The position numbers and the translations under genes are program-made. From NCBI GenBank assembly GCA_023245035.1, contig JAHFLD010000001.1, positions 83,285 through 147,284 of the forward strand: DNA of 64,000 nt. The letters are read 5' to 3'. The notes under the pieces are model-generated. The model worked only from the letters and a program-made list of their open reading frames with translations. It searched no databases and had not been told where the DNA came from. This stretch comes from Candidatus Harrisonbacteria bacterium (lineage in GTDB: Bacteria; Patescibacteriota; Minisyncoccia; UBA6257; 1-14-0-10-40-38). Shown here piece after piece: positions 8,820-59,534 of this stretch (positions within the stretch are counted from its first letter, which is position 1; every line of letters starts with the position of its first letter).

Positions 8820-9245
8820 ATGAGGAAAAAGAATCAGCCATCCATAAAGGCCCCAGCGGCAAAAATCTTTGGCGCCTACGACATCCGTGGCCGCTATCCA
8901 CGGGACATTAATTTGTCGGCGGTTGCGGTAATCGCGCGGGCCTTAAGCCGCGACTGGCGGGGCCAGACAGTCGTGCTGGGGCGCGACATCCGTCACGGCT
9001 CCGTAGAAATTTCTTCTGGTATTAAGTCCGAGCTTGAATCTGGCGGGGTCATGGTGATTGACGGCGGGTTAATGACCACTCCAATGCTCTATTTTCTCGT
9101 CTGCGAGACCAAGGCCTCTGGCGGGATCATGGTGACCGCCTCGCATAATCCAAAAAATTGGAACGGATTGAAGATGGTCGGATCAGGCGCTATTCCAATC
9201 CGCGGCGAGGAGGTTTATCAAAAAGTTAAAAAACTTGAGTCATGA
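8820..9245 (+). CDS. phosphomannomutase/phosphoglucomutase, N-terminal fragment (domain I with the catalytic Ser loop)
   Basis: Active-site loop TASHNPKNWNGLK. 141 aa, ends at a TGA that overlaps the ATG of the next ORF. See the fragment at 9242..10123. Confidence 0.7.
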   Translation: MRKKNQPSIKAPAAKIFGAYDIRGRYPRDINLSAVAVIARALSRDWRGQTVVLGRDIRHGSVEISSGIKSELESGGVMVIDGGLMTTPMLYFLVCETKASGGIMVTASHNPKNWNGLKMVGSGAIPIRGEEVYQKVKKLES

Positions 9246-10123
9246 ACCATCTCCAATCTTATCTAACATTTCTCAAACAGTTTCTTCGGCCAATGCGTCC
9301 GCTTAAAATCGTGATTGATTGTTCGGATGGTGTTGCGGGTGAAATCTTAAAAAAACTTTTTACGGAAGACGGGAATCCGGAAGTTATTTTAATTAACGCC
9401 GAACCCAATCCCGATTTTCCGGCGCACGGCCCCAATCCGCTTGTCCGTGGGGCGATGCGCGAAATTGCCGAAGCGGTAAAACAAGAGCAGGCCGACTTTG
9501 GCGCCATTTTTGACGCCGACGGCGATCGTGTTTTTTTTGTAGATAATCACGGCGGAGAAGTTCCCGCCGATGCCGTCTCTAGAATCATGTCCGGCGAAAT
9601 CAAAACGCCGATTCTCGTAACGCCCAACGCCGGCTACCTTATGCGAGATTGGCATGAAGTCCGCGAAGGCCGTATCGGCCACGCCTTTATGAAGCAAACA
9701 TTACGCGAGCAAAATCTGGACTTTGGTTACGAAAGTTCCGGCCACTACTACTTTAAAGATTTTTTCTCTTGCGACTCGGGCATTGTGGCCTTGTTAAAGT
9801 TTCTGAGCGCGATTTCAAGTACCACCTCTCCGCTTCGAAAAACCGTCAAAAGCTTTGGCGTCGTCTATCGCCTCCAAGAAAAAAACTTCCACCTCAAAAA
9901 TTCGGAGCTCGTCGCAAAAAAGCTCGTCCAAATAGAAGCCACCTATACCGGCAAGTCCAAGATTAGCCGTACCGAAGATCTGCGCGTGGCGGGGGACGAC
10001 TGGTGGTTTTCTCTGCATCCTTCGCATACCGAGCCACTCTTGCGCCTTAATCTTGAAGCCAAAGACAAAAAAGTCTTTCAGCAAAAAAAAGCGGAAATTT
10101 TGAGTCTAATCAAATCAGCTTAA
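9242..10123 (+). CDS. phosphomannomutase/phosphoglucomutase, C-terminal fragment (domains II-IV)
   Basis: Metal-binding loop FDADGDR and sugar-binding GYESSGHYYF. In a different frame from 8820..9245, with an ATGA overlap. Together the two ORFs make a normal ~435-aa PMM. Confidence 0.7.
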   Translation: MNHLQSYLTFLKQFLRPMRPLKIVIDCSDGVAGEILKKLFTEDGNPEVILINAEPNPDFPAHGPNPLVRGAMREIAEAVKQEQADFGAIFDADGDRVFFVDNHGGEVPADAVSRIMSGEIKTPILVTPNAGYLMRDWHEVREGRIGHAFMKQTLREQNLDFGYESSGHYYFKDFFSCDSGIVALLKFLSAISSTTSPLRKTVKSFGVVYRLQEKNFHLKNSELVAKKLVQIEATYTGKSKISRTEDLRVAGDDWWFSLHPSHTEPLLRLNLEAKDKKVFQQKKAEILSLIKSA

Positions 10124-15300: not shown

Positions 15301-15594
15301 ATGGAACTAAATCGCAAAAGTTTTTGGATCGCCATGGTCGTGGTTTTTTTGTTATGCGTAGCTCTCCTCTATGTGTTCGTGGTTAAACAACGAGAAGCGG
15401 CTAAAGTTGCCGGATTACAAAAAGAAGTCGGAAAGCAGGCTGAACAATTTAAAGCGGCGCTCCAAAAAGCGCAACAGCAAACCGAAGTCAGCTTACCCTC
15501 CACCAATCCTCTGGGCAACGTCGTCCCCAAGGTCAGTCCGCTAGATAAGGTTAATCCCTTTAAAAACAATGCTTACCAAAATCCCTTTGAGTAA
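15301..15594 (+). CDS. small membrane-anchored coiled-coil protein, unknown function
   Basis: One TM segment (FWIAMVVVFLLCVALLYVFVV) followed by a charged helix. 97 aa. Overlaps the next gene by 26 nt. Confidence 0.4.
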   Translation: MELNRKSFWIAMVVVFLLCVALLYVFVVKQREAAKVAGLQKEVGKQAEQFKAALQKAQQQTEVSLPSTNPLGNVVPKVSPLDKVNPFKNNAYQNPFE

Positions 15595-17554
15595 ACGCTG
15601 GCTAATCGCCGCGCCGGCGATTATCGCCGCCTTGCTGATTGCCGGAAGCGCCTCGGCCCTTTCGGTTTTTGATATTGAGTTTCCCATCGCTGAACTCGGC
15701 AATTGTGCCGATAAAACCGCCTGCAAAGCCTATTGCGCCGATCCGGAAAACCAAACTGCTTGCCTTGAATTCGCCAATAAATTTGGCATCAACCAGTCGT
15801 CAGCGGGACCAAAAACAACCGTTCGCGACGAGGGTAATCAGGGCGGTGGCATTAATGTCGCGAAAGCCAAAGCGGCGATTGCCGAAGACGGCGGCCCCGG
15901 GCAATGCGGCTCTTTTGAGAAGTGCGGCGAATTTTGCGGGCAGGCCGTGAACGCGCAAACTTGCGCGGAATATGGCACGAAGCACGATTTATTTAATGGT
16001 CAGCAAAAGGAAGAAGCTAGGAAGGTCGGAGAGGCTCTTAGGGGTGGCGCCAAACTTCCCGGCGGCTGTCGTGACCGCGAGTCTTGCGAAAAAACCTGTT
16101 CGGATCCGTCAACACTCGCCATCGCCAAAGAATGTATTCAATTTGCTCGTGCCGCCAATTTGGAGAATGCCGGCGATTTAGATAAAGCTGAAAAATCCTT
16201 AAACTCTCTGGATAGCCGGGACAATTCTATCGGCAATGACTTCCGCAAGTGTCAAAAACCCAAAGACGAGGCCACCTTAAAAAAATGTATTGATTTTGCG
16301 GAAAAAAACGGCTTTATATCCCCGGAAGAAGCTGCTTTGGTCAGAAAAACCGGTGGCAAAGGTCCGGGTGGTTGTTTTGGTGAAGAATGCCGAACCTATT
16401 GCAACGGCGAAGATCACGCCGAGGAATGTCAGCGTTTTGCCGAAGAAAATGGCCTGGTGACTGCGGAGCAGAAACAACAACGCGAAGAAGGCAAGCAAGC
16501 CATCCGGAATAGCTTGCAGAATGCGCCCGCCGACGTTAAAGAATGCCTAACCGGCACCGTTGGAGCCGAAAAAATACAAGGACTCTTATCAGGCAACGGC
16601 CAACCAACCCAAAGTCTGGGTAGCGCCATCCGTCAGTGTTTTGAATCCAGCGCTAAGGCCATGAGAGAGCGGAACGATGAATTTAATCAGCCAGACAACG
16701 AGGATCAAAAACCAGCCAATTTTGAAAACAACAACCAGGGCCAGTCTGCCGGCGACCAAAAAAGTCGCGGCTTCGGAAATTCCGGCCCGGGGCGAAACTT
16801 TCCGCCATGCGCCTCCGAAGATGAGTGTCAGGCAATGAGAAAAAAAATGGAATCAGAAAATGGGGGCGAGGGGAGTCAGTTTCCAACCCGGAATCCCGGA
16901 AATTTTTTAAGGCCAGGCAATGAAAACAGTGATCAGAGTCAAGGCGACGCCATGATGAAGGGTAATGGCTCGGTGCCAAAAATGAGGCCGCGATTTATGG
17001 GTCAGCCTGGTAAGTTGGATGATTTAAATCCGGAGGGTCAGTTTAACCAAGGATCAAATCGCTTTCCGGGAATGGAACGAGAGGAGATGATGAAAAAAGA
17101 AGAATCAATGCCAAGAGTGGAAATGATGAAGGGTCAAAATCAAAATTTTCCCGGACAATCGCAATTTGGACCAGACCAGCAAGGTCAGATGCCGAGGCCA
17201 ATGTCCGGACCGGGACAATCCTTTGGGCCGAACCAGCCATTTCCTACAAACCCCGATCGACAATTTTCGGGGCAATCATCCGGTATGGGTAACTTTAATG
17301 GTCAGCCAATGATGGGGCCACCAGGTGGAGAAGGTAATTTTTCTTCGGGTAATTCTGGCGGAATGATGTCTCCGCCAATGGGTGGCTCCTTTCCTATGAG
17401 CGGACCTTCCGGCGGGTCAATGCCAAGCGCGCCTTCCGGAGGAATGCCTCCGCCACCTGGCTCCGGCAGTATGCCGCCACCGCCCTCCGGCGCCCTTCCT
17501 ACCAAGAATTTTTTCGGCTTTCTTCTCGAGCCATTTCTTCAATTATTTCAGTAA
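15569..17554 (+). CDS. secreted protein with about 6 tandem four-cysteine modules followed by a ~300-aa Met/Gly/Pro/Gln/Asn-rich low-complexity region
   Basis: Signal peptide. Repeated C-x5-C-x3-C-x8-11-C-x2-FA modules (for example CADKTACKAYCADPENQTACLEFANKFG and CFGEECRTYCNGEDHAEECQRFAEENG). The C-terminus is full of MxxM-like and PPPP runs, with no recognisable fold. Confidence 0.6.
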   Translation: MLTKIPLSKRWLIAAPAIIAALLIAGSASALSVFDIEFPIAELGNCADKTACKAYCADPENQTACLEFANKFGINQSSAGPKTTVRDEGNQGGGINVAKAKAAIAEDGGPGQCGSFEKCGEFCGQAVNAQTCAEYGTKHDLFNGQQKEEARKVGEALRGGAKLPGGCRDRESCEKTCSDPSTLAIAKECIQFARAANLENAGDLDKAEKSLNSLDSRDNSIGNDFRKCQKPKDEATLKKCIDFAEKNGFISPEEAALVRKTGGKGPGGCFGEECRTYCNGEDHAEECQRFAEENGLVTAEQKQQREEGKQAIRNSLQNAPADVKECLTGTVGAEKIQGLLSGNGQPTQSLGSAIRQCFESSAKAMRERNDEFNQPDNEDQKPANFENNNQGQSAGDQKSRGFGNSGPGRNFPPCASEDECQAMRKKMESENGGEGSQFPTRNPGNFLRPGNENSDQSQGDAMMKGNGSVPKMRPRFMGQPGKLDDLNPEGQFNQGSNRFPGMEREEMMKKEESMPRVEMMKGQNQNFPGQSQFGPDQQGQMPRPMSGPGQSFGPNQPFPTNPDRQFSGQSSGMGNFNGQPMMGPPGGEGNFSSGNSGGMMSPPMGGSFPMSGPSGGSMPSAPSGGMPPPPGSGSMPPPPSGALPTKNFFGFLLEPFLQLFQ

Positions 17555-17685: not shown

Positions 17686-20328
17686 ATGAAATCATTCAAT
17701 CGCTTCACTATTAAAGCCCAAGAGGCCCTGCAAAACGCCCAAGAGCTGGCCGCGCAAAGAAATCACGGCGAGTTCAAAGCCGTTCACTTGCTTTCTAGTC
17801 TTCTTGGCGACGAACAATCCCTGGTTCGCCCCATCTTGATTAAAAGCGGAGTCAATTTGGAGACCTTGTACGCCGCCATCGAAGAGGAACTGCAAAAATT
17901 GCCGAAAATTTTTGCCACCGGCAATGTCGGCCAACTCTATTTGTCCCAGGAATTGATGCAGGTGCTGGAAAAGGCCGGCAAAATCGCCCTCAATCAAAAA
18001 GATGAGTTTGTCTCTTGCGAACACCTTCTGTTGGGAATCTTGGAATTGCCTTCAACCGCCCAAAAACTTTTGGAAAAATTCGGCATCCGGCGCGACAATG
18101 CCTTGCGGATCCTCGCCCAACTTCGCGGTTCGATGCGCATTACCGACGAAACGCCGGAGAGCAAGTTCCAAGTTTTGGAAAAATACGCCATCAATCTCAC
18201 CGATCGCGCCCGTGAAGGCAAGTTGGATCCGGTCATTGGCCGAAACGAAGAATTGCGCCGGCTGATTCAGGTTTTGTCTCGCCGCACGAAAAACAACCCG
18301 GTACTAATCGGCGAACCGGGCGTCGGCAAAACCGCCATTGTTGAAGGACTGGCTCAACGTATCGTCTCCGGAGACGTTCCCGATAGTCTCAAAGACAAGG
18401 AGGTTATTATGCTGGATTTGGGATCGCTCATTGCGGGAACCAAATTTCGCGGTGAATTTGAGGATCGGCTCAAAGCTTTTATTAAAGAAGTTCAAAACTC
18501 CGCCGGCCGGATGATTTTATTTGTTGATGAAATCCACATGATTGTCGGCGCCGGCGCCGCCGAAGGCGCGATTGACGCCTCCAATCTTTTGAAACCGCCG
18601 CTTGCGAGGGGCGAACTCCACGCCATCGGCGCTACTACGATTCGTGAATACCAACGCTATATCGAAAAAGACCCAGCGCTCGAGCGGAGATTCCAGCCGA
18701 TTATCGTTGAAGAGCCGGAGCCCGAAGACGCTCTCGCTATTTTGCGCGGCTTAAAAGAAAAATACGAAATTCACCATGGCCTCCGCATTAGCGACGAAGC
18801 GCTCGTTGCCGCCGTACAACTCTCGGCGCGCTATATTACCGACCGCTTTTTGCCGGACAAGGCCGTTGATTTGATTGATGAAGCGGCCGCTGCCAGGCGC
18901 TTGGAATCCGAAAGCGTGCCGGTGGAAATAGACAAATTGCGCCGCGATATTACCCGGATGGAGATCGAAAAATCAGCTCTGCTCAAAGAAACCTCTGCCA
19001 AAAATAAAGAGCGGCTTAAGATAATTGAAAAGGAATTATCGGCGCTCAAGGAGAACAACGACGAACTCTCCGGAGGTTGGCACGCCGAAAAAATCGCCTT
19101 TGAGAATCTCCACAATCTGCGTCGGCGCATTGAAGATTTACGACGCCAGGCGGAACTAGCCGAACGCGCCGGCGATTTGGAAAAAGTCGCCCAAATACTC
19201 TACGGTGAACTGCCAAAAACCGAAAAAGAATACGAAGCTCTGGAGAAAAAACGCCTCAAAACGGTCAAGGGCAAAAACGCCGACAAAACCGAAAAATTCA
19301 TTAAAGAAATGGTGGACGAGGAAGATATCGCCGGCGTTGTCTCGCGCTGGACCGGCATTCCCATAACTCGGATGCTGGAATCCGAAACCGAAAAACTGGC
19401 CCGCATTGAAGATGTCTTGACCAAGCGGGTTATCGGTCAAGAATCAGCGATAGCCGCCGTTTCTAACGCCCTGCGCCGCGCGCGCGCCGGTCTCGCCGAC
19501 GAAACCCGACCCTTGGGATCCTTTATGTTTCTTGGCCCAACTGGTGTTGGAAAAACCGAACTCGCGCGGGCTCTCTCCGAGTTTATGTTCAATGACGAAA
19601 AAGCCATGGTGCGAATTGATATGTCCGAATATATGGAGCGCCACGCCACCGCGCGTCTTATCGGTTCCCCTCCGGGTTATGTTGGTTTTGAAGAAGGCGG
19701 CCAGCTAACCGAAGTAATTCGCCATCGCCCATATAGCCTGATCTTATTTGATGAGGTGGAAAAGGCCCATCCGGAAGTGTTTAATATCCTTCTGCAAATT
19801 CTCGACGAGGGCCGTCTGACCGATGGCAAAGGCAAGACCGTCAACTTCAAAAACAGCATCATTATCATGACCTCCAATGTTGGCAGTCATTACTTCAAAG
19901 AGATGTCCAACATCGGTTTTGCGACCGTCAGCAAAAATGAGGCCAACGACAAGGAAGACTCCTTCAAACGCAAGGTTAATGATTCTCTCCGCCAGACCTT
20001 CAAGCCCGAGTTCTTAAACCGCATCGACGAGATTATTATTTTCAACGCCTTGCGGGAGTCGCAGATTGAGCAGATTGTTGAAGTGCAATTAGTCGCGCTC
20101 AAGGAAAAGCTTGGAGAGCGAGGCATTAAAATATTGATTGATAACGGGGTCAAAAAATATATCGCCGAACACGGATTTGACGCCGATTTCGGCGCGCGCC
20201 CCATTCGGCGCCTGATCCAAAAAGTGATTCTGGACAAACTTGCCGACAGAATTATCAAGGGCGAACTTAAAGATGGCGACAAAATTAAAATCTCTTCTTC
20301 GGGGGCTGCGATTACCATTACTCCTTAA
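17686..20328 (+). CDS. clpB: ATP-dependent chaperone ClpB (two AAA+ modules with a coiled-coil middle domain)
   Basis: Clp N-domain; Walker A ([15 protein letters not shown]) in NBD1; the long coiled-coil M domain, which distinguishes ClpB from ClpA/ClpC; NBD2 Walker A ([14 protein letters not shown]) and sensor region. 880 aa. Confidence 0.95.
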
Positions 20329-20350
20329 CGCCGCTCTATTTGCCGGTGGT

Positions 20351-21019
20351 TTGTTCATTGTCTATCTGGTGGGGCTTGATTGGCTGGCTGCCGCCTTGTT
20401 TTTGTTGCTTGCGATTTATCTCTACAGCCATCCCAAGGGCAACTTGGCAACCACCTCCATAATTGGAATTGCCGCCGTTGTCATCAATCTGGCACTGATG
20501 AGTTATGTCACCTCGCCTCTAGCCGCCCTAAGTCTTGCCGCAATGGGCGGCGTTCTTTGGTGTCTTATTATCGGCATAAAAAATGTTGAATTTTTGGAGC
20601 GGCGCGAGTGGCATCTATTTGCCACGGACACGGTTATCTATGGAGTGCTGGTTTTATTTTTTCTTGCTAATCAAACAGTTTTTTCGGTAATTAATATCCT
20701 GGCATTGGCCGGGTTTGCCTATCTCGTTCACCGAGAATTGCTTAAAGATTATTTTGCTGAATCGGTTAAAAAACCGGATCTTGCTTTAGCCTCGGGAATT
20801 TTAAGTTTGATCGCCGTCAAAATTGCCTGGGTGGCTAGCCTCTTGCCCCTAGGATTTATCAGTGACGTTAACGCGGTTATGATTACCTTGCTTTGCGCCC
20901 AAAACTTGATTATCCGCAAATTAGAAAATCGACTGACTGCTCGTTTTACTCTCTTGCAGATCTCATTTTTTGGCTTGGCGATGCTCTTAATCGCCGGTAC
21001 CACAAGCTGGTCCTTGTAA
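20351..21019 (+). CDS. polytopic membrane protein of unknown function
   Basis: At least 6 predicted TM helices. The ORF track opens at 20240 inside clpB. The start is placed at the first in-frame TTG after the clpB stop and is uncertain. Confidence 0.45.
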   Translation: MFIVYLVGLDWLAAALFLLLAIYLYSHPKGNLATTSIIGIAAVVINLALMSYVTSPLAALSLAAMGGVLWCLIIGIKNVEFLERREWHLFATDTVIYGVLVLFFLANQTVFSVINILALAGFAYLVHRELLKDYFAESVKKPDLALASGILSLIAVKIAWVASLLPLGFISDVNAVMITLLCAQNLIIRKLENRLTARFTLLQISFFGLAMLLIAGTTSWSL

Positions 21020-21139: not shown

Positions 21140-21784
21140 ATGACCATTGAGCAAAAAATCCAAGCCTTGGGAGTCGCCCTTATTAAAATCTCGGTCAACG
21201 CCAAACGTCTGGAGCTTCGACACCGACTGGAGCGCCAAGCATTCAATCTTTTGGAGTGCCTTGTTGATGAAAACCAAGTCAACCTCAAAAATCAGTTAAG
21301 GGCTGTGGATAACCTGGTAAAATTTGGCGGCCTGCTCTATGAGATCGAAACTATGCACGTCCGGGGGATTCGCGAGTGGATTGATGAAATAAGTCTGGAA
21401 ATTGAGTCCAGGCGTGAAGAAGGAGAAGAGCTTCCAGATCTGGATGAGATATTCGGTAAGAAAATGGATGAAATACCCAAAGAAGTCAAAAAAAAGGAAC
21501 CCGGCAATGAAATACGGCAAAACACGGCAATTGCCGAATTAAATAAAGAAAAAGAGTTAAACAACGAGCTAAATAATGCGGCAATCCGGCAATCGGCAAT
21601 CATTGATAGAATTCGGCAATCCGGAAATCAAACACAGATTCAGTTAAGAGATATTACCCAAGAACTCCCCGATGTTAGCGAGAGGACTATTCGCTACGAT
21701 CTCCAAAAACTTTGTAGCGACGGAGTTTTGGAAAGAATCGGCCAGGGCGGCCCCGGAACCTACTATCGTATCCGGGTTATTTAA
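21140..21784 (+). CDS. putative transcriptional regulator with a C-terminal winged-helix DNA-binding domain
   Basis: C-terminal HTH-like segment (SERTIRYDLQKLCSDGVLERIGQGGPGTYYRI). N-terminal helical domain and a charged linker. Confidence 0.5.
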   Translation: MTIEQKIQALGVALIKISVNAKRLELRHRLERQAFNLLECLVDENQVNLKNQLRAVDNLVKFGGLLYEIETMHVRGIREWIDEISLEIESRREEGEELPDLDEIFGKKMDEIPKEVKKKEPGNEIRQNTAIAELNKEKELNNELNNAAIRQSAIIDRIRQSGNQTQIQLRDITQELPDVSERTIRYDLQKLCSDGVLERIGQGGPGTYYRIRVI

Positions 21785-22331
21785 GTGTTATTGGAAACAA
21801 ACCAGCAAAAAGGTCAATGTTTCTTGCTTTATTTGGGTATCTGTAATAAAGTTACCTAGGTTATCGTTCTAACCTACGAGTCAGAAAAACACGGTATTCT
21901 TTCGTGGTTTTTATCTGCTCGTAAACCACAATGGCCTTCCTATCAATGGGACTGCTTGAGTGGCGATGAAAACTTAATAATTAGACCTAAGGCTTTTTAG
22001 GCAGTGGGTCTATGAGAATTTCAAGTTGACTTGGAGTGAGGCCAAGCCGACCGAAAGTCTGGTTTTTCTTATTTAGATTCTTTCGGATCGTCTTTTGTCT
22101 CGCTTTAAGCGAGATTTTTTGTTGTGTTACTAGGGGTTTGTCTTTGTTGCTGAGGTCGATTTCGCCTCGCGGAAAAGCCCGCTGGCGGAAGGACAAGGAT
22201 TAATCCTTCCGAAATTGAGCAATTAGAATTGATTAAAAACGAATTTCATAGAAATCGAAAAACTTGTTTACGATATAGCTTCCGGTCGGTGAAGGCGTCG
22301 TGAATAAGGAAAAAGTCAGAAAATAATTACA

Positions 22332-25300
22332 ATGAGTAAAACACTAACAAGCAAAATTACCTCCGTCGTCCTTTCTGTGGCGACGTTGGCCCTTTTTGCC
22401 GGCTCGATGCTTCCTAAAGCTGAAGCCGCTATGTCAGTGGCCGATCTCCAAGCGCAAATCGCCGCATTGCAGGCTCAGTTGTCTGCGCTCGCCGGTGGTT
22501 CTTCCACGCCAGCAACGTCATGCACCTTTTCCAGCACCCTCACTGTTGGAGCCAAGGGAAGTGCCGTTACTTGTTTGCAGAACTACTTAACGAGCACTGG
22601 TGACTATACCCACAGCGGTGGCGCGACGGGATACTTTGGTAACATTACCAAAGCCGCGGTCGCTTCATGGCAGTCTAAGCACGGAGTGTCTCCGGCAGCG
22701 GGCGTTTTTGGCCCAATCTCTCGAGCAAAATACAGTGAGTTACAGGCGGTTGCGGTAACCCCGACACCGACCCCAACTCCAGGCCCGGTAGCCGCTGGAA
22801 CGGGTTTAACCGTTTCTTTGGCCTCCGATCAACCGGCCCAAGGGCTGTTTGGCGAGAGCTTTGCCAGCCGTCCGTTTACCAAGCTCAACCTCACCGCCTC
22901 TTCGGATGGCGATGTGACGGTTAAGAAAATCGTTGTTGAGCGCGTTGGTCAGTCAGCCGATGCCGTTTTCTCCGGCGTTATCGCCTTGGATGAAAATTAC
23001 ATCCGCTATGACCGATCCAAGACGTTTGGCTCCGACCACACCTTGAGCTTGACCCCAAGCATCTTGGTGAAAGCCGGTCAAACCAAAACAGTCTATATCG
23101 CCGGTGATTCCGACAACAACCAAGATGCCTACAACGGCCAATTGGCCGCTTTGCAGGTTAAATCAGTTGATGCCGGTACTGCTACGGTTAATGGCTCCTT
23201 CCCAATGGTTGGAACCACGATGACTGTTAACAGCACGCTAGCGATCGGATCCGCGACTCTTACCCGAGGAACTCTGGATCCAGGTGTCAGCCAGACTAAA
23301 GAAGTCGGTACCACCGGATACACCTTCTCCGGTATTCGTATTAGCGCCGGTTCCAACGAAGACATTACCGTGAAAGCGGTAAAGTTCCTTCAGAGTGGTT
23401 CGGCTAGTGCGAGCGATCTAAGCAATGTCCAGGTCGTTTTGGATGGAACCTCTTACCCGGCCCAACTTTCTTCGGACGGCAAGTATTACACCGCGAACTT
23501 CGGTTCCGGCCTCTTCATCCAGAAGGGTCTGCAGAAAGAAATGTCAATCAAGGGTGATGTCATCGGCGGATCAAACCGCACGGTTGACATGAACCTTGAC
23601 TACTACGAAGATCTCCGAATCGTGGGCGCGACCTATGGCTATGCCATTACGCCGTCTGCCACCGATTCCGGTGACTCCGCGACGGACAACGATGGAACCT
23701 TCCAAGCATCCAACCCGAACTACGATGGCTATCTAGCCACCATTGGAACAGGAACGATGAACGTTACCAAGGCTAACTCGGTAACAGCTCAAAACATCGC
23801 GATTAACCTCGCTGATCAGGTTTTGGGAGGCTTTGATTTTGACGTCAAAGGTGAACCAATCACGATTGCGACCCTGCGCTTTAGCTTGGCCCCAAACAGC
23901 GGTAGCTCTGCCGACACAGCTGACATCACCAATGTCAAGCTCGTCCGTGCTGATGGTACTGTTGTTGCCGGTCCGGTTGATGCCGTAGCTGGTGGCACCA
24001 ACGCGGTTGTCTTTACCGATACCGTCACCTTCAATCCGGGCATTACCACCTACAAGCTCATCGGTAAACTGGGAACCGATTTCACCAACAACAACACGGT
24101 GACGGCTTCCACAACTCCTGGCAGTAACTGGTCCACGATTCGTGGCACGGTGAGCAACATCTCACTGACCCCGACTCCGTCCGGAGCGGTTATCGCCAAC
24201 ACGATGACCGTTAAGGCGGCTGCTCTCTCGGTCTCGGTCTCCCCGATTCCGTCAGCGCAGACAATCGTTGCTGGCTTGAACGGATTCAATTTCGGCAACT
24301 TCGTCTTTGACGCGAGTGGTTCCGGTGAAGATGTCCGCACGACCTCTTTCCAGCCACAAATATCCTTTGGTCAGTTAAACACCGCGGACGACCTCCGCGC
24401 CTGTCAGTTGTTTGATGGCGCAACTGCCTTGAACACCGGCACGAACATCGTGAACCCAGGCAATAGCGTCGCGAACCAAGATAACGTGACTTTCACGCTT
24501 GATTCCGGGGTCATTATTCCCAAGGGTTCGGTCAAGACTTTGGCCTTGAAGTGTAACGTTTCCGCTACAACTACGTCGGTCTCGACGGTTGCCGGAACGA
24601 TTAACTACACCTTTGCTTGGGGTCTTGGTTCTGGAGCTTCTGCCGCCAACACGGCAGTCACAACTGGCTTGACCTCTGGTCAGACCGTAACTCCAACCAT
24701 CAACACCAACAATGGTCAGAACATCAGTGTTGTGGCGAGCGGCACGCTCTCCATCGCGCTTGATTCCTCGAGTCCCGGCGCCCGATGGGCGGCTGGCGGC
24801 ACGACCGACAATGTCTTGAACGTCCTCCGCATCACAACTGGCGCGGAAGATGTGAACTTGACTCAAATCGGCTTGATCTTGGGTGGTGGTGCTTCCAACA
24901 CTCCGCAGGATTTGACGAAAGTCACCCTGTGGGATGGCGATGCCGCTACTCCGACCAAAGTTGGTGAAGTAGTCTTCTCTACGGCTGATATCGCGACCGC
25001 CACAATCTCCGGAATGATTATTCCGAAGAACAGCGACCGCAAATTGGTCATCAAGGGAGATATTGGCGCCTTCGGCGTCGGTGCGCCGGCTAAACCCGGT
25101 CACTTGGTACGAGTTGAGTATTGGTACGCCTCTGGTGACACTTCCGGTAATGGTACACGTGGCACCGGTTTGAGCTCTGGTAACTTCATTTACTCGGGCA
25201 CAACCGCGAGCACGACTGCTTCCGGTGGTGTGTATATCGCCAAGTCGTATCCGATCCTGACTCCGATCGCCTTACCGACCAACAAGCTGATTGCCGGAAC

Positions 25301-25997
25301 ACCGGCCATCTATCGCTTCTCGGTCACTGCTCCGTCAACGGGTGGAGTTGGACTTTATAAGTTCAGCTTCCGCACGGCGACCGCAGGTGGTACTACGGCT
25401 GTTTCTTACCAAGTCACCAACTTCCAGACCTGGGGCTACTCCGATTCGGCGTTCTCCATTCCGGCATATGGTTCGACTGGTCTCTTGAACAGCTCTGATC
25501 TAGTAACTGCGTCAAGCACGGCAACGGGCTACGCCATCGACGATTCGGCTAACCAGGCAGGAAGATTTACCATCTTCTTCAACCCGGTTGCCGGCAGCGG
25601 CACGACCAATGAGGCGATTCAGGTCCCAGCCGGACAGACTCGCTACTTTGAGGTCAAAGCCAACGTTGCTGGTGTCAGCGCTTCAACGACATTGAGCACC
25701 CAGCTTGAGGGCGACATTCAAACCCTTTATGCGAAGGATGCCGCGGATACATTTACCTCCGGCAACTACTCCTTCGCCACTACGGCCGCTTATGTTGCTT
25801 CTAGCACCATATTCGGTACCGAAGGCGCGGGCGGTGATGGCGTACTCTTGAGTGGATCAGGGGATGTCAGAAACGACTTCATTTGGTCCGACAACGCGAC
25901 GACCACTTCCGGTGTTGCGAACTACGACTGGATGAACGGCTACTTGGTTCCTGGCTTGCCGGGCACCAACATGTCATCTCAGACGCTCACCCCCTAA
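22332..25997 (+). CDS. giant secreted Thr/Ser/Gly/Ala-rich surface protein with an N-terminal peptidoglycan-binding (PG_binding_1-like) domain; S-layer/adhesin-like
   Basis: Signal peptide, a coiled-coil heptad (LQAQIAALQAQLSAL), a PG-binding-like domain (TCLQNYLTSTGDYTHSGGATGYFGNITKAAVASWQSKHGV), a TPTPTPTP linker, then ~1000 aa of Cys-free beta-rich low-complexity sequence. 1221 aa. Confidence 0.8.
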   Translation: MSKTLTSKITSVVLSVATLALFAGSMLPKAEAAMSVADLQAQIAALQAQLSALAGGSSTPATSCTFSSTLTVGAKGSAVTCLQNYLTSTGDYTHSGGATGYFGNITKAAVASWQSKHGVSPAAGVFGPISRAKYSELQAVAVTPTPTPTPGPVAAGTGLTVSLASDQPAQGLFGESFASRPFTKLNLTASSDGDVTVKKIVVERVGQSADAVFSGVIALDENYIRYDRSKTFGSDHTLSLTPSILVKAGQTKTVYIAGDSDNNQDAYNGQLAALQVKSVDAGTATVNGSFPMVGTTMTVNSTLAIGSATLTRGTLDPGVSQTKEVGTTGYTFSGIRISAGSNEDITVKAVKFLQSGSASASDLSNVQVVLDGTSYPAQLSSDGKYYTANFGSGLFIQKGLQKEMSIKGDVIGGSNRTVDMNLDYYEDLRIVGATYGYAITPSATDSGDSATDNDGTFQASNPNYDGYLATIGTGTMNVTKANSVTAQNIAINLADQVLGGFDFDVKGEPITIATLRFSLAPNSGSSADTADITNVKLVRADGTVVAGPVDAVAGGTNAVVFTDTVTFNPGITTYKLIGKLGTDFTNNNTVTASTTPGSNWSTIRGTVSNISLTPTPSGAVIANTMTVKAAALSVSVSPIPSAQTIVAGLNGFNFGNFVFDASGSGEDVRTTSFQPQISFGQLNTADDLRACQLFDGATALNTGTNIVNPGNSVANQDNVTFTLDSGVIIPKGSVKTLALKCNVSATTTSVSTVAGTINYTFAWGLGSGASAANTAVTTGLTSGQTVTPTINTNNGQNISVVASGTLSIALDSSSPGARWAAGGTTDNVLNVLRITTGAEDVNLTQIGLILGGGASNTPQDLTKVTLWDGDAATPTKVGEVVFSTADIATATISGMIIPKNSDRKLVIKGDIGAFGVGAPAKPGHLVRVEYWYASGDTSGNGTRGTGLSSGNFIYSGTTASTTASGGVYIAKSYPILTPIALPTNKLIAGTPAIYRFSVTAPSTGGVGLYKFSFRTATAGGTTAVSYQVTNFQTWGYSDSAFSIPAYGSTGLLNSSDLVTASSTATGYAIDDSANQAGRFTIFFNPVAGSGTTNEAIQVPAGQTRYFEVKANVAGVSASTTLSTQLEGDIQTLYAKDAADTFTSGNYSFATTAAYVASSTIFGTEGAGGDGVLLSGSGDVRNDFIWSDNATTTSGVANYDWMNGYLVPGLPGTNMSSQTLTP

Positions 25998-26029
25998 GGA
26001 ATACTTGAGGTTCCTTAAGGAAAACAAAG

Positions 26030-26062
26030 CCGCTCCGGTTAAACCCGGGGCGGTTTTTGTTT
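26030..26062 (+). terminator. rho-independent terminator after the giant surface-protein gene
   Basis: ccgctccgg ttaaac ccggggcgg (one G-U pair) followed by tttttgtttt. Confidence 0.5.
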
Positions 26063-26150
26063 TCCTGGTGTTTTTATGAACTCAAGTCGGCGCCTCGTGT
26101 TGGATTGCCGAAATTTGACCCGCGGGCGCGAAGTATTATAATAGCGGAAC

Positions 26151-26879
26151 ATGAAACCCGATTATAAAAAAATATTCCTTGTTATCGTTGGCATCGCCGT
26201 CACGGCATTAATTTCGGCGTACGCCGTAACTCAAATCAGGCTCAAACTTATTTTTGGCGATCTGCCACCCTATCGCGGTGAGCGCCTTGAATACATTGGT
26301 CCTGGGGACGAGTTTACAAAAACCCTGCCTAAAGCGGCCGTAGAAAAAAGAACCCAAGAACTCGCCGGTCTTAAAAAGCAAATCTACGCCAATCCAAAAG
26401 ACTACAATCTCTGGATCCAGGCCGGCATTCTCAAAAAGTTCTTTAATAACTACGAAGGTGCCCGCGACGTCTGGGAGTATGCCATTGTCGTTGATCCCAA
26501 AATATCACTGGCCTATTTTAATCTTGGAAATCTCTACGAATACTATCTCAAAGATTTTGCCAAAGCGGAAGCAAATTACCTGAAAGCTGTGGAAATTGAA
26601 GGTCGCGTCGCCGCGCAATATCACATTGCCCTCGCCGATTTTTATGATATTTCCTATGTTGAGAAAAAAAACGAAGTTGAAAAAGTGTTGTTAAATGGAA
26701 TCAACCTAATACCCCACGATGCCAGCCTCAAAGTTCGCCTGTCTGCTTATTACGAAAAGCAAGGCGATGTGCCAAAAGCAATTCAATATTTGAAAGTGGC
26801 TATAATCGACGACCCATCGCTAATTGAGGTTCAGAAAAAACTTCAGAATTTAGAATCTTCTGCTAGCAGGCGAAAATAA
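26151..26879 (+). CDS. membrane-anchored TPR-repeat protein
   Basis: N-terminal TM helix. TPR-like repeats (AYFNLGNLYEYYLKDFAKAEANYLKAVEI). Confidence 0.55.
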   Translation: MKPDYKKIFLVIVGIAVTALISAYAVTQIRLKLIFGDLPPYRGERLEYIGPGDEFTKTLPKAAVEKRTQELAGLKKQIYANPKDYNLWIQAGILKKFFNNYEGARDVWEYAIVVDPKISLAYFNLGNLYEYYLKDFAKAEANYLKAVEIEGRVAAQYHIALADFYDISYVEKKNEVEKVLLNGINLIPHDASLKVRLSAYYEKQGDVPKAIQYLKVAIIDDPSLIEVQKKLQNLESSASRRK

Positions 26880-31248: not shown

Positions 31249-32583
31249 ATGTGGCTCAAGATCGTTTTTAAGATTTTGCTACTCCCGATAGTTTTGGGTA
31301 GTATGTTATCCACCTCTGCCGAAGCGGCCGTGCCCCTGATTGATCGTGGAATGGTTCCCGGCAACGGCGATCAGGAAACCGCCGGCGAGGTTAGTGTTTG
31401 GCAAGAATATTTGATCCAAGGCGGTTATCTTAAAATCAACCAGCCAACCGGAATTTTTGGCGGACTAACGGGCCTAGCAACCGAACTCTGGCAAAAAGAT
31501 CACGACATCACGCCAACTTCTCCGTCTGTCGGACCGCGCGTGCGGGCCAAATTAAAAGAACTCGCGGAAACCGCGGTTAAGTCGCCGACACCGATCCAAC
31601 CAACATCACAGGTCTCCTCCGTTATCGGGTCTCCGACGCTGACAGATGGTCAAATTGTCCCGCTGACGCCATGTTTTGAGCGCCGGGTTCCTGAAATCTA
31701 CGCCACTATTGGCGAGGCGATTCGCGCCGCCTGTGCCAATGATCTAGTCTTAATCGGACCCGGCACCTACGAAGAAAGTATTATTAACATCACCCAGCCA
31801 GTTGTCATTCTGGGAGTTCAAGGGCGGGACAAGACGATTATTCGCGCCACCCGCGGACCGGCCTTATTGATTTCAGCTCCGATTTCCGGGGTCGTAATTG
31901 ATGGTCTCACTCTAATTGGTGCCACCAATCAACCCGCTGCTCTCGTTAATGTATCGCCTCGTCTCCTTACGCCAACCATTGCCTTAACGATCAAAAATTC
32001 TTCCCTAAAGAATTCCGAAATCGGATTGAGTGTTAGCGCGCCTGCCGGCGAAGTTGATGTTGAACGGACCATCATCGCCGAGAATCGGACTGATGGCGTT
32101 TCCGACAACTTCGGCGGAATAATTACCTTGGTCAACAACACCATCGCGCAAAACGATACCGGATATTCTTTGCAGAACCTCGGTGGTCATCACGTTCTTA
32201 CCAATAACATCATTGTCCAAAACAAAACCGACGGAGTCGCGGTGAGTTATCTGGGCAAAGAAACCACTCTGGATATGAATTACAACAACGTCGCCAATAA
32301 CGATAAGAACAATTACTACACCTATCGCGACGCGGCGGTTTTTGTTCCGCGGGGTTTGGTCAATCTAAGTTATAACCCGGGGTTTGTGTCTCAAAATGAC
32401 TATCGCTTAATTTCAACTTCAAAACTTATTGATGCCGGCGATCCCAAAACTCCGCTCGACGAGGATGGGACTCGAGCGGATATTGGGGCCTTGGCTTTTG
32501 ATCAGCGCCAGCTAAAAAGTGGCGCCAGTCTCTTGGTGAGTGTCGGAAAACTTCTCTCGCCGATAATTAGTTGGATGTGGTAG
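31249..32583 (+). CDS. secreted protein with an N-terminal peptidoglycan-binding-like domain and a right-handed parallel beta-helix (PbH1) repeat region
   Basis: Signal peptide. A PG_binding_1-like segment (VSVWQEYLIQGGYLKINQPTGIFGGLTGLATELWQ). Repeated beta-helix rungs (TNNIIVQNKTDGVAV / NNTIAQNDTGYSL / ERTIIAENRTDGVS). Confidence 0.65.
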   Translation: MWLKIVFKILLLPIVLGSMLSTSAEAAVPLIDRGMVPGNGDQETAGEVSVWQEYLIQGGYLKINQPTGIFGGLTGLATELWQKDHDITPTSPSVGPRVRAKLKELAETAVKSPTPIQPTSQVSSVIGSPTLTDGQIVPLTPCFERRVPEIYATIGEAIRAACANDLVLIGPGTYEESIINITQPVVILGVQGRDKTIIRATRGPALLISAPISGVVIDGLTLIGATNQPAALVNVSPRLLTPTIALTIKNSSLKNSEIGLSVSAPAGEVDVERTIIAENRTDGVSDNFGGIITLVNNTIAQNDTGYSLQNLGGHHVLTNNIIVQNKTDGVAVSYLGKETTLDMNYNNVANNDKNNYYTYRDAAVFVPRGLVNLSYNPGFVSQNDYRLISTSKLIDAGDPKTPLDEDGTRADIGALAFDQRQLKSGASLLVSVGKLLSPIISWMW

Positions 32584-38115: not shown

Positions 38116-39603
38116 CTAAGTCGGGGCTGTACTACTGCGCAAAATGAAGTCCGGGAGTCCCTGTCCCATGCTGTGTCCAAACTGAAGTTCGGGCACATCG
38201 GTCTGGTAGGGTTGTCCCAGTTTTTCTCGAAGCTCTCTTTCGGTCTCTCGGCACAGACGCGCCAAATCCTCGGCGGAAAGTTCATCGGTAAAGGCGAAGA
38301 AGCTGTCCAGCCCCATTCGCGCCCCGCGATCACCCTTGTAGTAGATGAAGTCCTTAAAGTAATCAACTTGTCTGGAATACAAGTGATCGCCATTTACCGT
38401 GTAAACCCAAACTCCATCCAAATGCGGAACCGCGTGGTCAAAGTAGGGCGTTCCCGGATAGACGGTAATCCGCGTCAGATCAAACGATTCCGGCCTCATC
38501 GCCAAAATCCAATCCTTTGTCTCTAAAATTGTCTCTTCGGTCTCGCCCGGATGCCCAACGGACATCAAGGCCTTAACTCTTAAGCCGTGTCGACGCGCTA
38601 TCTCCACGCACCGCGTATTATCTTCTCGAGTGGCGCCCTTCTTGATGTTGCGCAAGATACGGGGCGATCCCGATTCAAAGCCGGTCAAAATTTCGCGGAA
38701 TCCGGCCTCGTACATCGCCTCCGCCTGTTCGTCGGTAAAAAGTTCGGACTTGATGAACCCGCGCAGAGCCCATTCAATTCCCAACTCCTTGCCGAGTGTG
38801 GCAATGGCCCGCATGAGCGCTACCATTTGCGGATTAACATTTAGCTCATCGTCGTAAAACATTATCCCGCGGTAACCGTAGGTCTGGTAGATGTGGCGCA
38901 TCTCGGCAATCACGCTTTCCGTTGTTCGCACGCGAACCTTGCGCAAAAATGGCGATTCGCGCCCGCCGCAAAAACCGCATTGGAAGGGGCATCCCAACTG
39001 GGCGATCATGCTTGTGGCCGGCGCGCCGTTGATTCGGTAGTGATAGCTTTCCATCGCGACCAGATCACGGGCAGGAAAGGGTAGAGCCGTTAATTCTTCG
39101 GAAGTCAGAAATAACGGGCTGCGCCGATCATCGGCATCAATCAACTGTGGTCCGTTCGGATTAAGCGCCTCAAAGATCGCCTTCTCGCCGTCGCCGGCGA
39201 CCAGACAATCAAACATCTGGGCTAATCTTTGTAAATCATGATCCGCTCGGCCTAAAACGTTGCGTTCAACTTCTTGCCGTCTTGCCGCATTCACGAGTGT
39301 AACGTGTGGGCCGCCCAAGACTAACTTGATGTCCGGATTAAAATTCCGGATTATCTCCGCGATTCGCGCCGTTGCCGGCATCTGCGGGCTGGTCGCTGTA
39401 ATGCCAATGAACCAGGGTTTGTTTTTGCCGGCAATGTAGGCGCAAACCGCCTCGGGGTAGTTGGCCACTCCGGACAAGTCCAAGACATCAACCTCGATTT
39501 TTTTTTCCCGCAACACCGCCGCTACCCGTAAAACTCCGATGTGAGTGAAGAATCTTTCATCGCTCAAAATGAGCGACGGGGGAATGATTAAACCGACAGG
39601 CAT
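38116..39603 (-). CDS. B12-binding radical SAM enzyme (class B radical SAM; cobalamin-binding domain plus radical SAM core)
   Basis: N-terminal B12-binding-like Rossmann segment. CxxxCxxC cluster motif (GCPFQCGFCGG). Start at the internal Met, preceded by AAGGAG 5 nt upstream. The terminator hairpin overlaps its stop (38108-38125). Confidence 0.8.
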   Translation of the reverse strand: MPVGLIIPPSLILSDERFFTHIGVLRVAAVLREKKIEVDVLDLSGVANYPEAVCAYIAGKNKPWFIGITATSPQMPATARIAEIIRNFNPDIKLVLGGPHVTLVNAARRQEVERNVLGRADHDLQRLAQMFDCLVAGDGEKAIFEALNPNGPQLIDADDRRSPLFLTSEELTALPFPARDLVAMESYHYRINGAPATSMIAQLGCPFQCGFCGGRESPFLRKVRVRTTESVIAEMRHIYQTYGYRGIMFYDDELNVNPQMVALMRAIATLGKELGIEWALRGFIKSELFTDEQAEAMYEAGFREILTGFESGSPRILRNIKKGATREDNTRCVEIARRHGLRVKALMSVGHPGETEETILETKDWILAMRPESFDLTRITVYPGTPYFDHAVPHLDGVWVYTVNGDHLYSRQVDYFKDFIYYKGDRGARMGLDSFFAFTDELSAEDLARLCRETERELREKLGQPYQTDVPELQFGHSMGQGLPDFILRSSTAPT

Positions 39604-39720
39604 GAGAACTCCTTGTGTTGTTTCAAAGAACCATTCCAATTAAGCCAAAAAAACCGGTATTTAGCAAGTGTTCGGTAACCGGAATTGAAGCTCGGGCGAT
39701 TCCATGATACGGTGGCCAAA

Positions 39721-41415
39721 ATGCGACTCCTATCGGCAAAAAAGCACGTTATCATCCTAAGCGCTATTTTTTTGCTCGCGCTCGCGGTTCGTTTAGTTGG
39801 GGTTCAATATGGCTTGCCCCAGGAATACGTTGGCGACGAGTATGTTCAAGTTGCCGTCGCGCTCAAAATGCTGGACACGAGGTCGCTCACGCCAAATTTT
39901 CCCACGATTTTTTATCATCAACCGCTTAGCGCCTACATTTCCACCGCGGGTATCGCGACTTATCTTGGCTCGCAAATGCTCACCGGACGGTTTGCGGACC
40001 TTGCCGCCATGCGCGACTACTATGCCGTTCACGCGAGCGATCTTTTAATTGTTATCCGCTCGCTCGCGGCTCTGCTCGGAGCGTTCTCTGTTTTTTTTAT
40101 CTATGCCGCGGGGCGCGACTTATGGAGTAAAAAAGTCGGCTACCTAGCCGCGCTCTTTTTTGCCTTGGAGAGTGTGGCGGTCTACGTCGGGCATAGCGGG
40201 CGGGTCTGGGGCTATATGGTTTTTTTTATCTCACTCTCCCTCTCTGCGTCGGTTAAGCTTTTCCAAAATCCCACGGCGAAAAATTACGCGCGTCTGACTT
40301 GGACGACGATTCTCGCCGCCGCCAACGCCCTGCCCGGGATTTTTACCCTGGCGCCGACCCTCCTCACCCAATCCTGGCGTCATAATAAAAACCTTGGGAA
40401 ATCCCTTCTGATAATTATACTTGGCGTAATTTTGATCGTCCTCATGAGTCCGCGAGGCTTGGGCGCCCTGATTTTTAGATTCCAAAGTTTAAGTGGCGGC
40501 AATCTGACGCAACTCGTCTCCGGCAATCCGATTACTTATGAAGTCGCGCCGGTTCCACTAGTTAAGCGCTTTAGCGATCCCTTAAAAACACTTCTAACCT
40601 ATTCGCCGGGAATAACGCTCCTCGCGTTTTTGGGGATTATCATACTCTGGCGAAAAGAACGGAAAACCGCCTTGATGCTCCTAACCTTTCCGGTTGCTTA
40701 TTATCTCTTCATCGGTCCGTTTTTTACCTTCGGCTGGGTAGTGAGAACTCTTATTGTTTTTTCTCCTTACTTAAGCCTCTTCGCGGCTTATGCCATATTT
40801 CGTCTCGCTAAATCTACTTCGCGATATGGCAAGCTCTTCGCTGGCTCGCTTGCGGTGCTCGGCCTTCTTCCCGGAATTGTCTTTGCCTACTTGATCGATG
40901 TCAAACTCTCCCTCGCCGACACGCGCACGGAGGCCATCGAATGGGTCTACCAAAACCTTCCCGAACACTCCAAGATTATCGCCTTTTCACTCACTAACGA
41001 CGTCATCAACCAGGATCGCGACGTTTTGAAAGTCATGCAAAACTTCGTGCCGCAGAAGTTGAATAGCCGGCAAAGAACCTTGCTTTCCGCTCAGGATGGC
41101 AAGTTTCCGCGTCCTTATTATTTTGCCTGGGACGCGCGGGACAGCGGCGTGGACGCTCTGCCGAAAAATTTTTTCAAAGATCAAGGTTTTACCTATTATT
41201 TGCGGACCGATTGGGGCGGTCGTCCGCAGTCATTTTATGACGAAGCCGTGGAAAGAGTTTTTAAAACCAAAGAACTGATTGTCACCTTTGATCCATATTC
41301 CAAGCTGCCGACTGGCGAGTTCGGCAGTCTGCACAACATGATAAATCCGTGGGACGCGCTCTTTAAAGCAACGCGCTTCGGCCCTCGGGTAGAAATTTAT
41401 CGGGTTGAGTATTAA
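39721..41415 (+). CDS. GT-C family polyprenyl-phosphate-sugar-dependent glycosyltransferase (ArnT/PMT-like)
   Basis: About 12 TM helices. A DE-containing first extracytoplasmic loop (EYVGDEYVQVAVALKM). A large C-terminal soluble domain. 564 aa from the first ATG. Confidence 0.6.
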   Translation: MRLLSAKKHVIILSAIFLLALAVRLVGVQYGLPQEYVGDEYVQVAVALKMLDTRSLTPNFPTIFYHQPLSAYISTAGIATYLGSQMLTGRFADLAAMRDYYAVHASDLLIVIRSLAALLGAFSVFFIYAAGRDLWSKKVGYLAALFFALESVAVYVGHSGRVWGYMVFFISLSLSASVKLFQNPTAKNYARLTWTTILAAANALPGIFTLAPTLLTQSWRHNKNLGKSLLIIILGVILIVLMSPRGLGALIFRFQSLSGGNLTQLVSGNPITYEVAPVPLVKRFSDPLKTLLTYSPGITLLAFLGIIILWRKERKTALMLLTFPVAYYLFIGPFFTFGWVVRTLIVFSPYLSLFAAYAIFRLAKSTSRYGKLFAGSLAVLGLLPGIVFAYLIDVKLSLADTRTEAIEWVYQNLPEHSKIIAFSLTNDVINQDRDVLKVMQNFVPQKLNSRQRTLLSAQDGKFPRPYYFAWDARDSGVDALPKNFFKDQGFTYYLRTDWGGRPQSFYDEAVERVFKTKELIVTFDPYSKLPTGEFGSLHNMINPWDALFKATRFGPRVEIYRVEY

Positions 41416-43475: not shown

Positions 43476-43478
43476 TCC

Positions 43479-58620: not shown

Positions 58621-58714
58621 TTCCTTGATGTAACTATACGCATCTGACCAAGCGTTAACAATAGAACCCGCGATTGGGTCTATGAAGTTTGTACCTTTAC
58701 AATCGGAGATCTCC

Positions 58715-59428: not shown

Positions 59429-59450
59429 GCCCCTTACCGGGGCTTTTTTA
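59428..59450 (+). terminator. rho-independent terminator
   Basis: aagcccc ttacc ggggctt followed by ttttat, immediately after the formyltransferase stop. Confidence 0.6.
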
Positions 59451-59534
59451 TAGTCAGCTCTGGTAGTTCATGTTATCGTGAAGTTAACCTCGATTTTTTT
59501 TATGGGTAAATCAGTGTCTAATCACCGTCGTCTT

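Follow-up and report, generated by a model that had tools for sequence, protein, structure and literature searches.

The window analysed here is a stretch of 64,000 nucleotides from contig JAHFLD010000001.1 of a Candidatus Harrisonbacteria bacterium, and the gene under study, which encodes a candidate surface-layer (S-layer) protein, occupies positions 22332-25997 of its plus strand. The open reading frame (ORF) starts with ATG and comprises 1221 codons and a stop. It is preceded by a non-coding gap of 547 bp and followed by a terminator-like hairpin, by a gene for a tetratricopeptide repeat (TPR) protein and by a long region of glycan-synthesis genes. A preliminary description of this DNA had proposed a surface protein of 1221 amino acids (aa) with the same limits, placed at the entrance of a "glycosylation supercluster".

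Composition and N-terminal region of the protein

The protein consists of 13.0% Thr, 11.4% Ala, 11.2% Gly, 10.6% Ser and 8.0% Val, and these five residues together make up 46-61% of each full 100-aa block and 43% of the last 21 residues. The mature form (aa 33 onward) has a mass of 121 kDa and a pI of 4.76, with values of 4.35-4.86 among relatives. Cys (0.3%), Met (1%) and His are scarce. The four cysteines are located at positions 64, 81, 691 and 741, in the contexts SCTF, TCLQ, ACQL and KCNV; the CxEQ thioester motif of bacterial alpha-2-macroglobulins and thioester proteins is absent from all four sites.

By inspection of the sequence, the N-terminus, MSKTLTSKITSVVLSVATLALFAGSMLPKAEA↓AMS, has the look of a Sec signal peptide (aa 1-32, 22332-22427) with an AEA↓A cleavage motif. 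Residues 36-53 (VADLQAQIAALQAQLSAL; 22437-22490) were modelled by AlphaFold2 (AF2) as an amphipathic helix (crop residues 4-21), which is conserved across the family with the consensus LLAQIAALQAQLxAL and might form a coiled coil; the local confidence score of the model (pLDDT) is low in this segment. A PG_binding_1 peptidoglycan-binding domain follows (aa ~63-139, 22518-22748), which includes C64 and C81. This domain gave the one significant Pfam match of the protein (PF01471, aa 76-122, E 2.1e-8, 34.7 bits against a cut-off of 23), and its assignment is based on passing the gathering threshold and on the three-helix fold of the AF2 model. The head is joined to the rest of the protein by a Pro/Thr linker (aa 140-154, VAVTPTPTPTPGPVA; 22749-22793), in which TPTPTPTP begins at aa 143. 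The surrounding segment is disordered in the model, with pLDDT below 50 at crop residues 108-119, and the PxPxP pattern is retained in the family consensus.

These results agree with the preliminary description as to the richness in Thr, Ser, Gly, Ala and Val, the signal peptide, the PG_binding_1-like domain and the TP-repeat hinge. The short coiled coil that it listed corresponds to the modelled helix, at low confidence. Its statement that the protein is free of cysteine, with none in the last ~1000 aa, was wrong.

Other modes of wall attachment were also searched for. No SLH domain was matched by Pfam in the protein even at E<=1, and the C-terminus, ...PGLPGTNMSSQTLTP, lacks the hydrophobic tail of a sortase LPXTG anchor. 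No enzyme domain was found in the protein.

Predicted fold of the body

Modelling with AF2 on the family alignment gave a mean pLDDT of 85.5 and a global score (pTM) of 0.49, the latter as expected for domains arranged as beads on a string. All-beta domains start in the model near aa 155, 305, 467, 623 and 795, which delimits five beta-sandwich domains, D1 to D5 (aa ~155-304, 305-466, 467-622, 623-794 and 795-937; 22794-25142). In the C-terminal domain D6 (aa 938-1221, 25143-25994), a variable region rich in indels (aa ~1043-1177, 25458-25862) precedes a conserved tail (aa 1178-1221, DFIWSDNATTT...DWMNGYLVPGLP, 25863-25994). Modelled separately, these last 284 aa formed a single compact domain (pTM 0.80), which together with D1-D5 makes six beta domains in total. 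The structure prediction proposed in the preliminary description, aimed at tandem Ig-like or beta-sandwich repeats, thus returned six all-beta domains.

A weak internal repeat with a period of ~160-175 aa was detectable in the sequence, for example between aa 623-740 and aa 797-908 (E 5e-8). Sequence and profile searches of the PDB yielded matches to the peptidoglycan-binding head alone and none to the body. According to the model, the body is a series of confidently folded beta-sandwich domains and not a low-complexity Thr/Ser tract. The composition had been taken as typical of S-layer proteins and heavily O-glycosylated adhesins; the S-layer part of that claim is supported below, but because the protein is predicted to be a globular beta structure, its composition is no evidence of heavy O-glycosylation.

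Residues C691 and C741, both in D4, are invariant in the alignment of 70 family sequences (C659 and C709 in cropped-query numbering), and this invariance suggests a conserved disulfide within the fourth beta domain.

Distribution and conservation of the family

The first database search returned more than 1000 matches, and the best 120 were nearly all full-length (1000-1297 aa) and 40-90% identical. Across lineages, family members are full-length proteins of ~1150-1290 aa with 37-55% identity. A profile search of 1.84 billion cluster representatives, with a profile built from a shortened alignment, identified 2579 clusters (50% identity) at E<=1e-30, and a scan for the C-terminal motif, using one genome per species, found the gene in at least 205 species genomes. 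For the 80 loci that were retained, the match covers almost the entire protein, with identities of 37-90%. The carriers include two complete genomes (617 and 721 kb), and an identical protein is encoded on publicly available metagenomic contigs, the longest of which measures 262 kb. The family was found in Harrison-, Lipton-, Yanofsky-, Sung-, Kaiser-, Niyogi-, Giovannoni-, Lloyd- and Vogelbacteria; all named relatives belong to the Parcubacteria/Paceibacteria of the Candidate Phyla Radiation (CPR). NCBIfam holds no model for this protein family nor for its TPR partner.

Identity to the query changes along the protein. It is 57% in the peptidoglycan-binding head, 50-54% in domains 1-3 and 41-45% in domains 4-6, falls to 28% at aa ~1043-1177 and recovers to 53% over the final 44 residues, where the motif FIWSxN(S/A)TTT...DWxNG(F/Y)xVPGLP is nearly invariant.

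Some relatives depart from this architecture. In one branch (P0199, P0227, P0230, P0236, P0252, P0257 and P0264) the six-domain body is kept and the PG_binding_1 head is replaced by a ~200-aa N-terminal module with repeated "...VY.V..G.KR..." motifs, for which none of the four sequences scanned (P0199, P0227, P0230 and P0252) gave a Pfam match; this looks like a swap of the anchor domain. In relative P0129, head and body are separated by two Cys-rich inserts of the pattern "CxDxIDNDxDGKxDYxxDPGC". Relative P0169 (1361 aa) lacks the peptidoglycan-binding head, has the first two body domains duplicated and ends in an unrelated C-terminus.

Upstream gap and probable transcription unit

The non-coding gap upstream from the gene (21785-22331, plus strand) is a regular feature of the family: measured from the nearest preceding ORF of 100 aa or more, its length in 72 relatives has a median of 578 bp (interquartile range 416-756). 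In a comparison with the closest relative, which shares 90% protein identity, the identity over the entire 566-bp stretch is 86%; conservation is almost complete in the last ~310 bp (about 22021-22331) and poor at positions 21930-22020. This last portion is a putative leader. Folded as RNA, positions 22021-22335 reach -95.3 kcal/mol, more stable than shuffled sequences (z = -3.16). When the last 300 bp upstream were aligned for seven loci, no conserved element was found at 40-55% protein identity. No Rfam family was matched in the whole window at gathering thresholds, and a tRNA scan was likewise empty.

Two terminator-like hairpins with T-runs lie inside the gap, at 21890-21906 and 22097-22115. 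The second is retained in the closest relative, where changes are confined to the loop; it could be the terminator of the upstream gene or an attenuator of the leader. A promoter scan found no sigma-70 consensus promoter in the 547-bp gap. Given the two hairpins and the lack of a consensus promoter, the proposed leader of 540 bp, which is about as long as the gap, is a putative 5' untranslated region.

Directly 3' of the gene, a hairpin of 13 pairs, 8 of them G-C, is followed by a T-run (26026-26067; hairpin 26026-26057; plus strand) and resembles an intrinsic terminator, as the preliminary description had noted. Enclosed between a long structured leader and this strong terminator-like hairpin, the gene is apparently transcribed as a unit by itself.

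The TPR partner gene and the order of the locus

The next gene (26151-26879, plus strand) encodes a protein of 242 aa with an N-terminal transmembrane helix and TPR repeats, recognised by matches to TPR families. It has a promoter-like site of its own at 26115-26142 (TTGACC-16-TATAAT, 11/12). Locus counts were made on the species-level loci of the motif scan together with the earlier non-duplicate loci. Of the 71 loci with at least 1.5 kb of flank, 69 have a TPR homologue downstream from the gene and on its strand, less than 1 kb away in 58, and none has one upstream. Nearly all next-gene candidates retain the N-terminal hydrophobic helix. The homologues (L002-L087) are ~220-300 aa long. The TPR protein may be an assembly or tethering factor.

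Seven loci had 10-kb flanks, one being the window's own contig and six being independent. Their order was ClpB (in 5/7), a membrane protein, an HTH (helix-turn-helix) or NTP-transferase gene, the gap, the S-layer candidate, the TPR gene and GT4, the last being a family of glycosyltransferases (GTs), and this order was maintained down to 40-42% identity. In the window, the position before the gap is held by a gene (21140-21784, plus strand) for a 214-aa protein with a C-terminal DeoR-like HTH (Pfam HTH_DeoR, E 1.2e-6). It is syntenic in closer relatives, and an NTP_transferase gene holds its place in more distant ones; a role of the 214-aa protein as regulator is possible, by a weak link.

The first 21 kb of the window are mostly housekeeping genes, among them those for a sigma factor, RNase Y, RecA, FtsK, HtrA and ClpB. 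Near ClpB, a 661-aa protein (15569-17554, plus strand) and a multi-pass membrane protein of ~250 aa (20240-21019, plus strand) had no Pfam or NCBIfam match; the latter is syntenic with ClpB and the S-layer candidate gene in closer relatives. A phosphoglucomutase-like ORF of 293 aa (9242-10123, plus strand) matches domains II-IV only of its family, which may reflect a wrongly assigned start or a truncated or split gene. At one relative locus, L088 (1045-4548, minus strand), the Pfam matches delineate an FtsK gene with an intein that carries a LAGLIDADG endonuclease.

The glycan-synthesis region

The preliminary description counted more than 35 kb of glycan-synthesis genes downstream from the gene, and this region proved to be real. 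Genes for GT4, GT2, GT-C and nucleotide-sugar enzymes extend from 26.8 kb to at least 62.8 kb of the window (26843-62785), which justifies the name "glycosylation supercluster". They include about nine GT4 genes, two GT2 genes, a PMT_2 GT-C gene and many nucleotide-sugar enzymes: a UDP-GlcNAc 2-epimerase, a GDP-mannose dehydratase, a C-methyltransferase, two DegT aminotransferases, a formyltransferase and a CMP-sugar cytidylyltransferase. Three consecutive genes at 42468-45795 (plus strand) encode a GT2, a 331-aa LPG_synthase_TM membrane protein and the PMT_2 GT-C, a layout reminiscent of three-component systems in which polyprenyl-phosphate donors supply the sugars that are added outside the membrane. 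Positions 39685-41415 encode a second GT-C, a weak one.

Other genes of the cluster were noted. At 58682-62785 (plus strand) a formyltransferase, an Epimerase_2-like protein, a CMP-sugar cytidylyltransferase (CTP_transf_3) and a DegT aminotransferase stand in a row, which hints that a CMP-activated sugar, nonulosonic or other, is made. The clusters of two distant relatives (L005 and L006) contain a counterpart of the B12-binding radical SAM enzyme that is encoded at 38116-39639 (minus strand). A 444-aa protein (31249-32583, plus strand) combines a weak PG_binding_1 match (E 0.008) with a right-handed beta-helix and may be a wall-anchored enzyme acting on polysaccharides.

The association with glycosyltransferases is one-sided. 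Across 80 relatives, with about 0.41 Mb of flanking sequence on either side, 75 GT4 ORFs were counted downstream from the gene and none upstream. A GT4 ORF was seen in 28 of the 58 loci that have 6-kb flanks only, and GT4 genes are present downstream in 6/6 independent loci with 10-kb flanks. The preliminary description had also suggested checking whether relatives keep PMT-like GT-C genes adjacent. In the window this gene lies 18 kb downstream, and it was found in one of the six independent relatives with 10-kb flanks (L002); the consistent neighbours across relatives are instead the TPR protein and the GT4 genes.

No O-oligosaccharyltransferase of the Wzy_C type (PglL/WsaB) was found among the large ORFs at 26-63 kb or the ten upstream ORFs scanned, and neither a Wzx or ABC exporter nor an STT3-like WWDYG protein was found in the window. 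Its candidate extracytoplasmic transferases are the PMT_2-type GT-C proteins only. N-glycosylation through the N-x-T sequon of the tail was considered and rejected: the sequon is present in 56/70 sequences and not invariant, and the window contains no STT3-like protein. The number of sequons in the protein (19) is not in excess of that in shuffled sequences (15.4 +/- 3.1).

Discussion

The envelope of the Parcubacteria has been called unclear, with speculation about a glycosylated S-layer (Castelle 2017, PMC5220378). An apparent S-layer was observed by electron cryomicroscopy (cryo-EM) on a Nealsonbacteria cell (10.1101/2022.04.20.488981), and S-layers have been reported for some Minisyncoccota; the paper describing Minisyncoccus makes no statement on an S-layer. 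An episymbiotic life is common among CPR bacteria. Kuroda et al. 2024 (PMC10936435) predicted the structures of the products of the five most expressed genes of unknown function in three Paceibacteria. Among these are secreted proteins that have peptidoglycan-binding domains and resemble one another in predicted structure; the authors interpreted them as host-attachment factors. A putative Patescibacteria S-layer protein, obtained from a scan of a Nealsonbacteria genome, was presented in the supplement of a preprint (10.1101/2024.05.28.596244): its six immunoglobulin-like (Ig-like) assembly domains form a left-handed spiral and are predicted to build hexagonal pyramid lattices, with C6 plus C3/C2 contacts that yield p6 symmetry. 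The examples given, of 1131-1274 aa and including one from Kaiserbacteria, are A0A1G2EN61, A0A1F5NRV7, A0A0G1WWP5, A0A1F4NSF7 and GMX59286.1. Homologues are described there as "particularly numerous" and as ranking, in two of the Kuroda species, within the top five secreted proteins by expression; the third species has a three-domain relative of 692 aa (GMX57981.1) instead.

The protein of the window and that of the preprint are both secreted, both of ~1130-1270 aa and both built of six Ig-like or beta-sandwich domains; both families are numerous in Patescibacteria, including Kaiserbacteria; and a peptidoglycan-binding domain is shared with the two proteins of Kuroda et al. that the preprint counts as homologues. 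From description, size, head domain and taxonomy, the two families are very likely the same. Cluster look-ups, a second search for homologues that started from a Kaiserbacteria orthologue, a contig look-up and searches of supplements yielded no cross-reference to the accessions of the preprint or to the Kuroda locus tags. One of these tags, PMX_810_sub_00350, was considered as a family member and set aside, being 692 aa long (2079 nt) and matching GMX57981.1 in length and organism.

The protein also resembles S-layer proteins of better-known bacteria. Sap and EA1 of Bacillus anthracis and SbsB and SbsC of Geobacillus have, like it, a non-covalent N-terminal wall anchor, a similar size, an acidic pI and few cysteines, and their anchor is followed by 6-9 beta-sandwich domains "like beads on a string" (SbsC, PMC13635256), as compared with six here. 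The preprint calls striking the resemblance of its Patescibacteria protein to the S-layer glycoprotein (csg) of the archaeon Haloferax volcanii, with which it shares the six Ig-like domains, the left-handed spiral and the hexagonal assemblies. Csg differs in being anchored to lipid or membrane at its C-terminus, and the likeness to the protein described here is one without demonstrated homology.

We consider it likely that the gene encodes an S-layer protein of a Parcubacteria/Paceibacteria bacterium of the CPR. The fold, the wall-binding head and the conservation of family and locus establish the basis for this reading; for export, peptidoglycan binding, lattice formation and abundance we rely on inference or on the preprint. 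The reading follows from an architecture that lacks any enzyme domain and comprises a signal peptide, a peptidoglycan-binding head, a linker and six beta-sandwich domains modelled with confidence, from traits typical of S-layer proteins (121 kDa, acidic, poor in Cys, Met and His) and from full-length conservation in many Parcubacteria lineages, with a conservation that drops from the wall-proximal part to the distal loops and rises again in the tail. The long upstream gap with its conserved structured leader and the strong terminator-like hairpin point in the same direction, as do the putative S-layer protein of the preprint with the high expression of its homologues, the apparent S-layer on the Nealsonbacteria cell and those reported for some Minisyncoccota.

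Several points weigh against it. An identity of 37-55% across lineages that were named as separate candidate phyla is unusually high for S-layer proteins. The link to the preprint is one of matching description, size and taxonomy. Furthermore, the measured CPR lattice constant of 13 nm fits the three-domain relative better than the six-domain protein, for which it would be 18.5 nm (10.1101/2024.05.28.596244).

If the protein is an S-layer subunit, its precursor would be exported by Sec and lose its signal peptide. The PG_binding_1 head, whose fold was modelled, would then hold it non-covalently on the peptidoglycan of the cell itself; the conserved helix may bundle adjacent subunits, with the flexible Pro/Thr linker as a spacer, and the six beta-sandwich domains would self-assemble into a hexagonal lattice. 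Such an arrangement would account for the conservation of the last 44 residues beside the variable loops just before them.

The same parts could also form a host-attachment adhesin, an Ig-like stalk rooted by the peptidoglycan-binding head whose variable distal domain binds the host and which builds no lattice. This is how the highly expressed Paceibacteria proteins with peptidoglycan-binding domains were interpreted by Kuroda et al. 2024 (PMC10936435), and it suits both the episymbiotic habit common in the CPR and a distal region that is the most variable part of the protein and the richest in indels. On the other hand, the family keeps its full length and 37-55% identity across many lineages whose hosts are probably different, hardly any variation is seen at the extreme C-terminus, the protein gave no match to a recognised domain of adhesive, lectin or carbohydrate-binding module type, and lattices have been predicted for apparent homologues (10.1101/2024.05.28.596244). 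We therefore regard a pure adhesin as unlikely; the two roles are moreover compatible, as an S-layer can itself be the contact surface. It seems very improbable that the protein is instead a wall-anchored scaffold of cohesin-like modules, onto which secreted proteins or glycans dock in the manner of a cellulosome scaffoldin, with no self-assembled lattice.

What the downstream cluster does is a separate question. The S-layer protein of Haloferax volcanii is glycosylated, and an S-layer gene followed directly by a glycan-synthesis cluster is known from Geobacillus stearothermophilus NRS 2004/3a (sgsE and slg) and from Paenibacillus alvei. The order of gene and cluster is the same in the window, which differs in having no Wzy_C-type transferase, Wzx or ABC exporter. 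Judged from gene position, the cluster probably either glycosylates the protein or builds an associated wall glycan, and the protein is a plausible substrate of glycosylation. The chances come close to even that the cluster makes a secondary wall polymer or capsule and merely shares a cell-envelope neighbourhood with the S-layer candidate. This would agree with the absence of PglL/WsaB-type (Wzy_C) and STT3-type transferases from the window, and PMT_2 GT-C enzymes, which belong to the ArnT/PMT superfamily, also modify lipids and wall polymers; a protein anchored through a peptidoglycan-binding domain, besides, has no obvious need of a wall polymer. A shared neighbourhood accounts less well for the directionality of the GT4 association and its presence in all six independent loci, and the Geobacillus and Paenibacillus gene orders argue for a link to the protein, as does the Pro/Thr linker, which resembles the O-mannosylated linkers of secreted actinobacterial proteins.

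Taken together, the observations permit a wider scheme, which we offer tentatively and consider rather doubtful in its entirety. Throughout the Paceibacteria, the S-layer gene would head a conserved locus for biogenesis of the surface coat, composed of a long structured leader, the S-layer gene, the gene for a membrane-anchored, extracytoplasmic TPR protein and a cluster of glycosyltransferases; the TPR protein would be an S-layer assembly or tethering factor not recognised before, and the lattice protein would be glycosylated outside the membrane, for example on the Pro/Thr linker, by a polyprenyl-phosphate-sugar route involving the three genes at 42468-45795.

Since the central identification was apparently made in silico by the 2024 preprint, our result is in this respect confirmatory. 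As consulted here, that preprint (10.1101/2024.05.28.596244) mentions neither the TPR partner and the long leader nor the Cys pair, the C-terminal motif and the synteny with glycosyltransferases. The partner gene, the leader and the polarity of the glycosyltransferases are likewise without mention in the literature cited here and constitute additions at the level of the locus. These additions, with the invariant Cys pair and the C-terminal motif, are directly testable. The CPR/Patescibacteria represent a large share of bacterial diversity, and knowledge of their coat gene would aid labelling and structural work and help to explain host contact and phage recognition. If the scheme proposed above is true, the surface-coat locus would define an S-layer glycoprotein system in the CPR for the first time.

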